A stretch of 64,000 bases of DNA from Candidatus Gastranaerophilales bacterium (GTDB taxonomy: Bacteria > Cyanobacteriota > Vampirovibrionia > Gastranaerophilales > Gastranaerophilaceae). Below the pieces are notes generated by a model. It made no database searches and had not been told where the DNA came from. It saw only the letters and a list, made by a program, of their open reading frames with translations. Of this stretch, positions 38,141-40,490 are shown piece after piece (the stretch's first letter is position 1; each line of letters begins with the position of its first letter). Location: positions 11,117 through 75,116 of the forward strand of contig CALUXY010000001.1 in NCBI GenBank assembly GCA_944324855.1. The letters are read 5' to 3'. A program made the position numbers and the translations under genes.

Positions 38141-38482
38141 ATGCTGAAGGTAGGATTAGGAAATACAAATTTTAGAGCAGTAAATTTCAAAAAAGATGAA
38201 AACAAACAACAACCTCAACCTTTAGCCGGGAAAATTGTTCAGCCGGAACCGAAAAAACCTGCTGAAAAATTACCGGGTTACGCTTATCCTCCGATTGCCG
38301 GACTGATAGCTCCGCCAAAAGTTCCTAAAGCTCCAACACCTACAGTTGTACCACCTTTGGCTGGTGTAATAACACCGCCAATGCCAAAGAAACCTGAAAC
38401 AACTCCGGATGTTGTACCGCCTTTGGCTGGCTTGATTCCTGCTCCGGAACCGGAAAAAATTAAAGAAGACGAGAAAAAATAA
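38141..38482 (+). CDS. Pro-rich protein with four P-[LI]-A-G-x-I-x-x-P repeats (candidate modified-peptide precursor)
   Basis: AGGAGG SD 7 nt upstream of the ATG. Repeats are PLAGKIVQP, PIAGLIAPP, PLAGVITPP and PLAGLIPAP, separated by P/K-rich spacers. The stop lies 3 nt before the radical SAM gene ATG. Confidence 0.55.
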   Translation: MLKVGLGNTNFRAVNFKKDENKQQPQPLAGKIVQPEPKKPAEKLPGYAYPPIAGLIAPPKVPKAPTPTVVPPLAGVITPPMPKKPETTPDVVPPLAGLIPAPEPEKIKEDEKK

Positions 38483-38485
38483 TTA

Positions 38486-39496
38486 ATGTACAAACTTTAT
38501 ACTGCAACAATAGAAATAACAAGGAGATGTAATGCGAAATGCGTACATTGCATTATTGGTGCGGGGCAAGCTAAACCGGAAGAATTAACAACCAATGAAA
38601 TCTTAACACTTATTGAAGACATGAGTGATTTAGGATGTCAAAATATTGCTCTGACAGGCGGAGAACCTTTTTTAAGGAAAGAATGGCCGTTATTTTTGCA
38701 AAAGATATCAAGCCTTGATATGCAGACAATATTTATGACAAACGCAATGCTGATTAATGATGATGTCATAAATATTTTAAAGCTTTATCCAAATATCGGA
38801 ATGGGAATTAGCCTTGACGGGGCAGATAAAGAAACTCACGATTATGTTAGAGGTATTCCAGGGATTTTTGACCATTTCTGTGAAATTGTTCCGAAACTAA
38901 AAGCGGCCGGGATTTATATTGCAGTTCCAACCACCGTTATGCAATCCAATTATGACAAATTGGAAGCTATAAGAGATTTGTTAATAAATTTGGGTGTTGA
39001 TGCCTGGCAGCTGCAAATTGTAAAACCGAGTGAACGGCTTCCGGAATCTGAATTGTTAACGGAAGAACAGTACTACAAACTTGCAGAAAATATTGCAGAT
39101 TGGAGAGAAAAATATTCCGACAAAATTAATATAATGGAATCTGATTGTATCGGGTATTATTCAAAACTTCAAGATAAGCTTTATATTCAAAATTGGCGCG
39201 GATGCGAATGCGGAATATATTCCGTAAGTATTGAAAGTGACGGAAATGTAAAAGGCTGCCCTAATATGAACAATTCTGAAGGGAATATTAAAACAAGACC
39301 GTTTAAAGAAATCTGGGCGGATCATAATTCTTTTAAATACAATCGTTGTCCTGATATTGAAACTCTAAAAGGTTACTGTCAGGAATGTAAACACAAATAC
39401 ATCTGCCGCGGAGGCTGTCCGACAAATCCTAAAACAAAATCCGGCGGTGCGTTTTGTTTGTACAAAATTGAACAAGTTGGTATTGATAAAACTTAA
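38486..39496 (+). CDS. radical SAM enzyme with C-terminal SPASM/twitch-type Cys-rich domain
   Basis: CNAKCVHC (CxxxCxxC, nt 38528-38551) and GGEPFL. The C-terminal region reads CECG...DGNVKGCPN...CQECKHKYICRGGCP. Confidence 0.85.
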   Translation: MYKLYTATIEITRRCNAKCVHCIIGAGQAKPEELTTNEILTLIEDMSDLGCQNIALTGGEPFLRKEWPLFLQKISSLDMQTIFMTNAMLINDDVINILKLYPNIGMGISLDGADKETHDYVRGIPGIFDHFCEIVPKLKAAGIYIAVPTTVMQSNYDKLEAIRDLLINLGVDAWQLQIVKPSERLPESELLTEEQYYKLAENIADWREKYSDKINIMESDCIGYYSKLQDKLYIQNWRGCECGIYSVSIESDGNVKGCPNMNNSEGNIKTRPFKEIWADHNSFKYNRCPDIETLKGYCQECKHKYICRGGCPTNPKTKSGGAFCLYKIEQVGIDKT

Positions 39497-39566
39497 CATA
39501 TTGATAAATATTAGCAAAAAACCTAAAAAAAATGTTTTATTATAAACATAAAGAAGGTTTATAAGT

Positions 39567-40490
39567 ATGGGAATACAAGTAGGTAATAATACTCAAATAC
39601 CAGTTTATACAAATAATAATGTAAAATTCAAACAGAATTTTAATTTGTCGCCTGCGGACCAGCAATCGGAAGATAAATTTGAAAAAAGCGGAATCTCTAA
39701 CAAGAAGAAAGGAATTATTGCCGCTGGTATCGCAACAGCAGCGGTTATTATAGGAGTACTTGTAAATAAACATATTAAAGCACAACAGCTAAAAAAAGTT
39801 CCGGAAGAATTTAAAACAATATTTAAAGAATTAAAAAATGAAACCGGAGATAATTTCGTAAATAAGGCATACGATAAACTAAAAAAATATATGAAACTTG
39901 AAGGTGTTGCACCTGAGAAAATCGGACGAGCCGGTGCCGACCAGGGTATTAATGCGGTTCAAGGAGGATTTGATCCTTCTTTGAATACAATCAAATATAC
40001 AGATGGATTTTTTACAAAACTAGATAGAGCAACACAATTTGAAATGTTGGCTCATGAACTAAAACATGCAGAGCAAACATCAAAAATAATCCGTTCCGGA
40101 AAGCTTGATGAATATGCGCAAGCCTGGGCAGAATTTAATGTTAACAATACAAAAAATAACCCGTTAAACATCCCGTTTGGTATGGCATATACACAAGCAA
40201 AAGCAAATGGTACAGAAAAAGAATTTCTAGAAAAGGTAACACAAAATACCAAAAACCAAATTTTAGATAATATGAAGAAAAGCCATCAAACATCACTTGC
40301 AATGCCGCAATTTAAACCGGGAAGTCAAGAATATCAAGATGCCGAAAGATATCTTGATGCAACAAGGAACTATGAAGGTTTAGGATTTATGGCAATACCG
40401 GGTGAAAACTACCGCAATAATCCGCTTGAAACAGAAGCGTATGGTTTTGGGGCTCAAATGAAAAAATTCTTTAATATTGTAATGAGCTAA
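39567..40490 (+). CDS. membrane-anchored HExxH protein (DUF4157-like putative metallopeptidase)
   Basis: N-terminal ..NVKFKQNFNLSPADQQ.. leader, then one TM helix (GIIAAGIATAAVIIGVLV), then LAHELKHAEQ (HExxH followed by Q). Confidence 0.5.
   Translation: MGIQVGNNTQIPVYTNNNVKFKQNFNLSPADQQSEDKFEKSGISNKKKGIIAAGIATAAVIIGVLVNKHIKAQQLKKVPEEFKTIFKELKNETGDNFVNKAYDKLKKYMKLEGVAPEKIGRAGADQGINAVQGGFDPSLNTIKYTDGFFTKLDRATQFEMLAHELKHAEQTSKIIRSGKLDEYAQAWAEFNVNNTKNNPLNIPFGMAYTQAKANGTEKEFLEKVTQNTKNQILDNMKKSHQTSLAMPQFKPGSQEYQDAERYLDATRNYEGLGFMAIPGENYRNNPLETEAYGFGAQMKKFFNIVMS

Follow-up and report, generated by a model that had tools for sequence, protein, structure and literature searches.

The question raised by this locus is whether a radical S-adenosylmethionine (rSAM) enzyme with a SPASM domain modifies the small Pro-rich peptide encoded directly upstream of it, and by what chemistry. 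The two genes lie in a 64,000-nucleotide stretch of contig CALUXY010000001.1 from a Candidatus Gastranaerophilales bacterium, a gut cyanobacterium without photosynthesis (the whole stretch is called the window here). Our study reads them as a two-gene cassette resembling those of peptides that are made on the ribosome and modified after translation (RiPPs), with a precursor coupled to its putative maturase. Judging from sequence comparisons, this cassette probably belongs to a Tyr-less branch of a splicease-like enzyme family.

A repeat peptide gene coupled to a radical SAM/SPASM gene

The features on which this reading depends are the following:
38129..38134, + strand: Shine-Dalgarno sequence AGGAGG of the precursor gene (direct sequence reading)
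38141..38482, + strand: precursor-like open reading frame (ORF), 113 amino acids (ORF list and raw sequence; orthologues lie directly 5' of the enzyme gene elsewhere)
38219..38245, + strand: core repeat 1, PLAGKIVQP (translation)
38291..38317, + strand: core repeat 2, PIAGLIAPP (translation)
38354..38380, + strand: core repeat 3, PLAGVITPP (translation)
38420..38446, + strand: core repeat 4, PLAGLIPAP (translation)
38486..39496, + strand: rSAM/SPASM enzyme, 336 amino acids, putative maturase of the upstream peptide (Pfam, NCBIfam, AlphaFold2, Foldseek)
38528..38551, + strand: CxxxCxxC rSAM cluster motif CNAKCVHC with C15, C19 and C22 (translation, residues 15-22)
39146..39457, + strand: SPASM domain with eight invariant Cys (C221, C240, C258, C298, C301, C307, C311 and C324)

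The initial annotation of this DNA had described the precursor ORF, its AGGAGG and its four repeats, and coordinates and translation all match that description. The precursor ATG lies 6 nt after the AGGAGG (the upstream letters are TTAGGAGGTAAGAT, then ATG), and the N-terminus forms a short leader beginning MLKVGLGNTNFRAVNFKK. The core repeats lie about 21-24 amino acids apart, with Pro/Lys-rich spacers between them. No signal peptide was found in the window precursor, and its scan against Pfam and NCBIfam returned no domain. The tight coupling of the two genes was also read correctly: the precursor TAA ends at 38482 and is followed by TTA, so that the enzyme ATG at 38486 stands in the same frame after a 3-nt spacer. 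Around the pair and the HExxH gene that follows it, promoter-like sites are no more numerous than background; no terminator-like site occurs between the three genes, and the sole strong hairpin is found downstream of rpsU.

The repeats are not a product of composition. The motif [LIVMT][AGS]G.[IVM] occurs four times in the window precursor, against 0.04 occurrences expected from composition-preserving shuffles, and none of 20,000 such shuffles gave four copies. The Gly codons of the four repeats are all different (GGG, GGA, GGT and GGC) and DNA similarity among the repeats is confined to repeats 3 and 4 (81% over 31 nt); it is therefore the protein sequence of the motif that is maintained, and a recent tandem duplication of DNA was rejected as the origin of the repeats. 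A single GYAY in the window precursor is not conserved.

The enzyme had been described as carrying CxxxCxxC and a Cys-rich, SPASM-type C-terminus, which the motif, the eight Cys and the Pfam matches (Radical_SAM, 4.4e-23; SPASM, 5.2e-6) bear out. Its SPASM set of Cys is complete (C221; C240-x12-G253-x4-C258; C298xxC301x5C307x3C311; C324), and no RiPP recognition element domain was found in it. The AlphaFold2 model is confident (pLDDT 94.7), and the top Foldseek matches of this model are SkfB, SuiB, PqqE and anSME, peptide-modifying SPASM enzymes that are its nearest solved folds; a sequence search of the PDB gave an alignment confined to the rSAM core. Across approximately 50% sequence divergence, the eleven Cys that bind clusters never vary and the SAM-binding motifs do not vary either; the GGEP motif is invariant too. 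With these residues and this model, the enzyme looks functional.

The enzyme fits no curated NCBIfam family, since every score is far under the corresponding cut-off. The highest-scoring family was TIGR03913 (173.9 bits vs a cut-off of 591.75), followed by NirJ2 (166 vs 500), TIGR04103 (160.8 vs 725), AhbD (152 vs 500), MftC (118 vs 265), PqqE (89 vs 381) and anSME (74 vs 349). This profile search, which the initial annotation had recommended, thus leaves the enzyme outside the heme, cofactor and sulfatase maturase families.

We read the neighbourhoods of 12 loci, including the window, whose enzymes are at least 48% identical to the window enzyme. Most of the relatives come from ENA and Logan assemblies, and a scan of JGI metagenomes gave one close locus (L081); a word-index search with the precursor returned 5 relatives only, owing to its low complexity, and neighbourhoods were read instead. 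More than 150 homologues of the enzyme occur in metagenomes, with identities that fall gradually from 92% to 39%, the closest genomic locus being L001, from a Candidatus Gastranaerophilales metagenome-assembled genome (MAG), at 92%. A repeat ORF adjoins the enzyme gene in 12/12 loci and in at least six different genomic contexts, with flanks that vary by locus (LepA/DedA, Pribosyltran, UDG with L27-L21, PNPase with CHAP). In ten of these loci, with enzyme identities of 58-92%, the enzyme gene is preceded on its own strand, at a distance of 3-119 nt, by a small Pro-rich ORF (window, L001, L002, L003, L161, L163, L164, L166, L173 and L178); in the other two (L165 and L168, enzymes 49-51% identical) the repeat ORF is divergently oriented and has 3-4 related repeats. 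The pairing of a precursor-like gene with a maturase-type gene, as first proposed, is thus a conserved property of this enzyme clade. The alternative raised with it, that the Pro-rich ORF is a TonB-like or periplasmic linker protein conserved independently, was rejected on account of the same pairing.

The pooled motif comprises 41 instances in 11 precursors. Gly occupies position 0 in 41/41, P is found at position -3 in 26, position -2 holds L/M/I/V/T, position -1 holds A/S/G, and I/V stands at position +2 in 35; the core motif of the window clade can be written P-[L/M/I/V]-[A/S/G]-G-x-[I/V]. Tyr was observed at the A/S/G position in none of the 41 instances, and Gly occupies it in L003, L168 and L178. 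Purifying selection on the core motif is clear, and the spacers diverge. Most precursors of the clade, the window's included, have no export signal; the L002 precursor has a lipoprotein signal, and those of L164 and L166 have a C-terminal transmembrane (TM) anchor. In gut and rumen metagenomes, the cassette is widespread among uncultured Gastranaerophilales, and the index of the sequence collection lists one member of the clade in 242 blocks. A Tyr-less cassette with a 62% identical enzyme is also present in L003 (JAMPCZ010000034.1), a contig labelled as a Muribaculaceae MAG and probably mis-binned.

Loss of the core Tyr and a residue switch in the enzyme

Tyramine spliceases belong to the rSAM enzymes; at X-Tyr-Gly they cut out a tyramine equivalent, and an α-keto-β-amino acid remains (PMC11414181, PMC5995677, PMC9811515, PMC11626197). 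The X of their splice sites is Leu or Met, as in the MYG and LYG of PlpA, PcpA, RcsA and RasA (PMC11414181, PMC11626197), and the spliced PlpA cores read GPIRP-L-Y-G-LPI and AVAA-M-Y-G-VVFP (PMC10533398). The window cores PP-L-A-G-LIP, PP-L-A-G-VIT and PP-I-A-G-LIA share Pro, Leu/Met and Gly with them, as well as the downstream hydrophobic residues; the Ala of the window cores stands at the position of the spliced Tyr, where orthologues have Ser or Gly.

The relation of the enzyme to the splicease-like family holds at the superfamily level. Relatives with 33-47% identity to it reach 195-242 bits with the TIGR04103 and TIGR03913 models and adjoin peptides with [KR]YAGP, KYAAP, KYGIP, LYGVP or a C-terminal YG[TG]VSIxDF. 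At the Tyr loci of Gastranaerophilales type (L004, L081, L169/170, L174, L005 and L008) these peptides are signal-anchored Pro-rich proteins with [K/R]YAGP, RYGGP, [K/M]YAAP or KY[G/A]I repeats. The L171 clade has LYGVP and LYAAP peptides, the Myxococcota loci L018, L034, L036 and L047 have up to eight xY[A/G]xP repeats, and archaeal and deltaproteobacterial loci have peptides ending Y[G/T][G/T/A]xS[I/A]x[D/N]F. A TIGR04103 member on a Nostoc plasmid (named by PGAP) is preceded by a Nif11-leader precursor ending GG-RGSIALYGLPPELF, and a small ORF overlaps the end of its gene; this order fits the PlpA/PlpX/PlpY architecture with an XYG target (PMC11414181, PMC5995677, PMC10533398).

In neighbour-joining trees the Tyr-less enzymes are monophyletic (bootstrap 83%; 96% for their core) and sister to the Tyr-type Gastranaerophilales clade (bootstrap 60%), with the archaeal YG clade and the TIGR04103 and TIGR03913 references further out, all in one radiation relative to the EpeE outgroup. 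With these references, one TIGR04103 and one TIGR03913 member, support for a place within the splicease radiation is moderate. Because of its nesting in these trees, the Tyr-less state appears to be derived.

The loss of Tyr from the peptide is accompanied by a switch of residues in the enzyme, at the following positions:
38552..38554, + strand: signature residue I23 (Gly in all Tyr-associated relatives)
39209..39211, + strand: signature residue C242, in CECG, two residues after the SPASM Cys C240 (Ala in Tyr-associated relatives and in the TIGR04103/TIGR03913 members examined)
39260..39265, + strand: signature residues P259-N260, right after the SPASM Cys C258 (259 aligns with EpeE Cys223)

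We compared 48 sequences of at least 48% identity to the window enzyme (Tyr-less) with 31 sequences of at most 47% identity (Tyr-associated). Position 23 is I in the Tyr-less clade (M in two) and G in the Tyr-associated set; position 242 is C in 48/48 as opposed to A; position 259 is P (S in three) as opposed to L; and position 260 is N (C or S in two) as opposed to S. The exact combination I23/C242/P259/N260 is found in 41 of the 44 sequences of at least 58% identity, the other three having S at 259, and the four sequences at 48-50% identity vary at 23 or 260. GALS is present at the four positions in 31/31 of the Tyr-associated sequences, and the four residues are G, A, P/T and S in the references from Nostoc, Azospirillum and Agathobacter. 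In a library of 1.84 billion proteins, C242 occurs in 0 of 147 other 50%-identity representatives; the signature was met among 149 other representatives in two fragments only, both of the Tyr-less clade.

Position 23 comes directly after the last Cys of the SAM-cluster motif, and positions 242 and 259/260 lie next to the two Cys of the SPASM hairpin base. In the alignment with EpeE, its auxiliary-cluster ligand C222 falls on window C258 and its H-donor C223 on position 259; in the EpeE structure, the substrate Cα has SAM on one side and C223 with the auxiliary cluster on the other (PMC13012085). It is thus very likely that the switched residues contact the substrate, and their alignment near the EpeE active site is indirect evidence that the upstream peptide is that substrate, as we strongly infer. 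By these relations the Tyr-less cassette is best described as a variant within the splicease-like family and not as a wholly new class; its clear-cut sequence signature leads one to predict an altered chemistry. The initial annotation had called the system a RiPP class that it did not recognise; the motif is indeed undescribed in the literature that we found, and the cassette itself belongs to a derived branch of that family. Our literature search found no paper on a Tyr-less cassette (the splicease survey of Scott et al. 2022 lay outside this search) and no paper tying Gastranaerophilales to rSAM RiPPs or spliceotides, and searches on TIGR04103, TIGR03913 and the 'GDL motif' returned nothing relevant.

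The relatives with Tyr presented further features. In the precursors of L004, L081, L169/L170 and L174, a leader [D/N]F[E/D]x[V/L]NKQIAxF is followed by a hydrophobic segment and then by [K/R]-Y-A-[G/A]-P repeats, and those of L004, L081 and L169 share a conserved C-terminal GH[F/Y][I/M][F/Y][K/R]; in the Tyr-type Gastranaerophilales precursors, Y-Ala is commoner than Y-Gly. The ORF at 2023-3729 of L018 (a Myxococcales MAG) encodes 568 amino acids with eight xY[A/G][A/G/V]P motifs beside an enzyme of GALS signature, and L034, L036, L047 and L131 have similar arrangements; these are protein-sized, multi-site candidate splicease substrates. In L015 (a Syntrophus sp. MAG), the ORF at 3571-3999, directly upstream of the splicease-like enzyme, encodes a secreted protein of 142 amino acids with a Kunitz/BPTI-like Cys pattern that ends KYGGVSIRDFRNAK, that is, a protease-inhibitor domain fused to a putative splice motif. 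In L177 (Agathobacter rectalis DFI.5.28, NZ_CP143948.1), an unannotated small ORF at about 2790-2900, MFNLEELSLEFVKISELKTSKNLFGPVMYGTGVRM, has an MYG motif and lies directly 5' of a splicease-like 'radical SAM protein' (2980-4134), which is followed by a major facilitator superfamily transporter; this is likely a cluster of spliceotide type that has escaped annotation, in a Firmicute common in the human gut. The record NZ_CP143948.1 is labelled as a plasmid but has fusA and tuf, and it may be chromosomal. P0151 (731 amino acids) and P0158 (663 amino acids), two of the top representatives, each matched the query in two separate stretches, which suggests tandem or fused rSAM/SPASM enzymes, and L013, L014, L096 and L103 have a second rSAM/SPASM gene directly upstream.

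Proposed chemistry and competing explanations

Enzymes related to this one act on X-Tyr-Gly/Ala motifs or are predicted to do so. In this branch the core Tyr has been replaced by Ala, Ser or Gly, with the flanking Pro, Leu/Met and Gly context retained, and the enzyme has changed in step, with G23 to I next to the SAM cluster and A242 to C, L259 to P and S260 to N at the SPASM hairpin base by auxiliary cluster I. In the mechanism that we propose, the enzyme would bind the four cores one after another, between the SAM cluster and auxiliary cluster I, and the 5'-deoxyadenosyl radical would take a backbone Cα-H within each core. The Cα radical would then be quenched by H-atom transfer from C242, and the outcome per repeat would be an L-to-D epimerised Leu/Met, or Ile/Val two positions after the Gly. 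Since Gly is tolerated at the former-Tyr position (L003, L168 and L178), the first abstraction must be independent of the side chain there, and a backbone Cα-H is its likely target; quenching from C242 seems the most likely next step because there is no Tyr to excise and a new non-ligand Cys stands by the auxiliary cluster. In EpeE and PoyD, which the gain of this Cys recalls, the Cα radical takes an H atom back from a Cys thiol on its opposite face (PMC8326336, PMC13012085).

By this analogy, iterative L-to-D epimerisation of an aliphatic core residue is possible, and we put it forward tentatively as the best guess; a chemistry other than epimerisation or splicing is likewise possible, and no modification of the peptide at all is unlikely. 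In a wider formulation, the I23/C242/N260 clade may carry out an rSAM RiPP reaction new to the literature on an all-aliphatic Φ-[A/S/G]-G-x-[I/V] core, by non-aromatic residue excision or by iterative epimerisation evolved from a splicease scaffold. The product would then be a Pro-rich peptide modified at several sites and made by common gut Gastranaerophilales, such as a surface peptide that resists or inhibits proteases. We judge this reading, reaction and product taken jointly, to have somewhat less than an even chance.

It is important to consider several points that weigh against the cassette reading. The core contains no residue of known rSAM-RiPP reactivity (no Tyr, Trp, Cys or Lys-Trp pair), and modification of the peptide is predicted from sequence. 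Across the loci read, the pair has no conserved protease or exporter partner, and most precursors there have no export signal. C242 does not coincide exactly with the catalytic Cys of EpeE (C240+2 vs C258+1). The sister relation to the Tyr clade has a moderate bootstrap of 60% in a simple neighbour-joining tree, and the joint switch of motif and residues represents one evolutionary event, so that their correlation carries no further statistical weight. Finally, TIGR04103 is presumably the PlpX (tyramine splicease) family, as the architecture of the Nostoc cluster suggests.

Other explanations of the pair have to be weighed against this background. In Tyr-independent splicing, Ala, Ser or Gly would be excised in Tyr's place; an α-keto-β-Leu/Met ketoamide would result at each [L/M]-[A/S/G]-G, and the peptide would be a multi-warhead protease inhibitor. 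The window sites PP-L-A-G-LIP and PP-L-A-G-VIT match those of PlpA and the Nostoc IA-L-Y-G-LPP nearly residue by residue, with the Leu or Met of canonical sites (MYG, LYG) at X, and the changes G23 to I, A242 to C and S260 to N would fit the filling of a vacated phenol pocket. However, every published splicease depends on the XYG Tyr and takes out a tyramine equivalent (PMC9811515, PMC5995677), the Gly at the 'Tyr' position in L003, L168 and L178 excludes a mechanism initiated at the side chain, and the newly gained Cys would be left without a role; we therefore regard this explanation as rather doubtful. If instead the system were a relic, with the peptide unmodified after the loss of Tyr and the enzyme inactive or re-purposed, the missing reactive core residue and the missing export or protease partner would be accounted for. 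This is improbable in view of the eleven cluster-binding Cys and SAM motifs that remain invariant over about 50% divergence, the clear purifying selection on the core motif beside diverging spacers, and a clade that is widespread, with one member in 242 collection blocks. That the two genes are unrelated neighbours, a cofactor, heme or sulfatase-type maturase (AhbD/NirJ/anSME-like) beside an independent envelope or linker protein, is scarcely credible. NirJ2 (166 bits) and AhbD (152 bits) do stand among the top NCBIfam matches, but with about one third of their cut-off of 500, and anSME reaches 74 of 349; no heme, sulfatase or cofactor-pathway genes occur in the neighbourhoods looked at, and a heme or sulfatase maturase was rejected on these grounds. 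Moreover, the pairing persists across changing contexts, the motif co-varies with active-site residues, and neither Pfam nor NCBIfam recognises a domain in the Pro-rich ORF.

The remaining explanation involves the gene that follows the pair:
39567..40490, + strand: HExxH gene, 307 amino acids, TM-anchored, with HELxHxxQ...LExEAY, judged to lie outside the cassette (synteny, family alignment)

The initial annotation was right that a TM-anchored HExxH protein is encoded downstream (HELKH at residues 163-167, TM helix at about 52-76), and it had envisaged a cassette of three genes in which precursor, rSAM enzyme and HExxH protein act together, the last as a leader or spacer peptidase. We consider this quite improbable, and the third member was not borne out by the neighbourhoods. 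The gene order in the window is LepA, a DedA/UptA-like gene, precursor, enzyme, HExxH gene and rpsU, and the HExxH gene is adjacent to the pair and co-oriented with it in 3/12 loci (window, L001 and L178); it is missing beside the pair in L173, L161, L163, L164, L166, L002 and L003 (enzyme identity at most 82%), and in L173, whose enzyme is 82% identical, a CHAP-domain gene takes its place. Conversely, L179 keeps LepA-DedA-HExxH-(paralogue)-rpsU without the pair, with a DedA-HExxH gap of 76 nt. Given this backbone, the adjacency reflects the site of insertion, the pair having been inserted beside a resident gene, and in the window the gap from enzyme to HExxH gene is 70 nt, unlike the 3 nt within the pair. 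The HExxH family is small (25 clusters), and HELxHxxQ and LExEAY are invariant in it, which would suit a peptidase partner; its Pfam matches to DUF6782 ('putative metallopeptidase') are all below the gathering score, and the best Foldseek matches of the window protein, to minigluzincins, are weak (E 0.2-1), so that the assignment is sub-threshold. A membrane metallopeptidase of minimal gluzincin type is plausible from its sequence. The HExxH gene is an unrelated neighbour, and the cassette consists of two genes.

Other observations concern the surroundings. At 4001-5939 of L179 the HExxH gene is tandemly duplicated, the second copy encoding 311 amino acids with 51% identity to the window protein. 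In the window, just 5' of LepA, an overlapping Gp49/HigB-like toxin (135 amino acids) and a helix-turn-helix 'addiction module antidote' (115 amino acids) form a type II toxin-antitoxin pair at 33891-34614 (+ strand). An ORF of 2093 amino acids at 41733-48014 (+ strand) has an FHA domain (residues 1586-1628), a PEPKPT repeat linker and a weak C-terminal match to a calpain-type Cys protease, with no further domains recognised.

Significance and comparison with known systems

To our knowledge, ribosomal α-keto-β-amino acids arise by no route other than the spliceases, whose mechanism is unsolved. The loss of Tyr together with three to four changes in the active site amounts to a natural experiment that probably marks the residues of the Tyr pocket, and a compact enzyme of 336 amino acids in a two-gene system bears on this unsolved rSAM mechanism. 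Non-aromatic splicing or epimerisation, if true, would widen both rSAM peptide chemistry and the toolbox for editing protein backbones. The cassette also gives a handle on Gastranaerophilales, a common uncultured gut lineage. Lys/Arg ketoamides are classic warheads of trypsin-type inhibitors, and the products of the Tyr-type sister clade would carry them if spliced; if true, this suggests an idea for survival in the gut.

Among the known systems, the spliceotide systems (PlpX/PcpX/RasX/RcsX) share with the window cassette an rSAM + SPASM gene directly after the precursor gene and, in type II and later systems, a binary organisation with no further conserved partner. They also share the core context P-[L/M]-x-G-[L/V]-hydrophobic and the tolerance of several cores per precursor; TIGR04103 ('nif11-class peptide radical SAM maturase 3') counts among the top-scoring families for the window enzyme, and the sister clades of that enzyme have X-Y-[G/A] precursors. 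The window cassette differs from them in its cores, with Ala (Ser/Gly in orthologues) and no Tyr, so that the loss of C8H9NO (135.07 Da) brought about by spliceases cannot occur there. It differs as well in not reaching the TIGR04103 cut-off, in having neither a Nif11/NHLP leader nor PlpY, in I23/C242/N260 where all the splicease-like relatives examined have G/A/S, and in its presence in Gastranaerophilales.

The GDL-motif peptide-associated rSAM/SPASM maturases of TIGR03913 gave the best curated score, and short peptide genes precede their enzyme (Azospirillum). Their peptides are DUF1843 proteins with a GDL motif and not Pro-rich repeats, and neither the motif nor a DUF1843 match is present in the window precursor; at the signature positions their enzyme reads G/A/P/S, and its C-terminus carries a long extension. 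PapB/freyrasin (CxxxD repeats) and the triceptides (Ω-x-x repeats) resemble the proposed system in that one SPASM enzyme acts iteratively on a repeated short motif, although their motifs have crosslink-forming Cys or aromatic residues and the window core has neither.

EpeE/YydG (epipeptides; PDB 8AI1-8AI6) is related at the level of the fold only (Foldseek rank 47), and its precursors are unrelated. It has the single-cluster T-SPASM where the window enzyme has a full two-cluster SPASM, and the extra Cys of the window enzyme stands at C240+2, not at C258+1. Nevertheless, both are rSAM enzymes with a SPASM-type auxiliary cluster, positions 259/260 of the window enzyme align with C223/S224 of EpeE, and each has a non-ligand Cys beside an auxiliary-cluster ligand, which in EpeE donates H to the Cα radical. 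The targets of EpeE/YydG are aliphatic Val and Ile, and the window core is likewise aliphatic.

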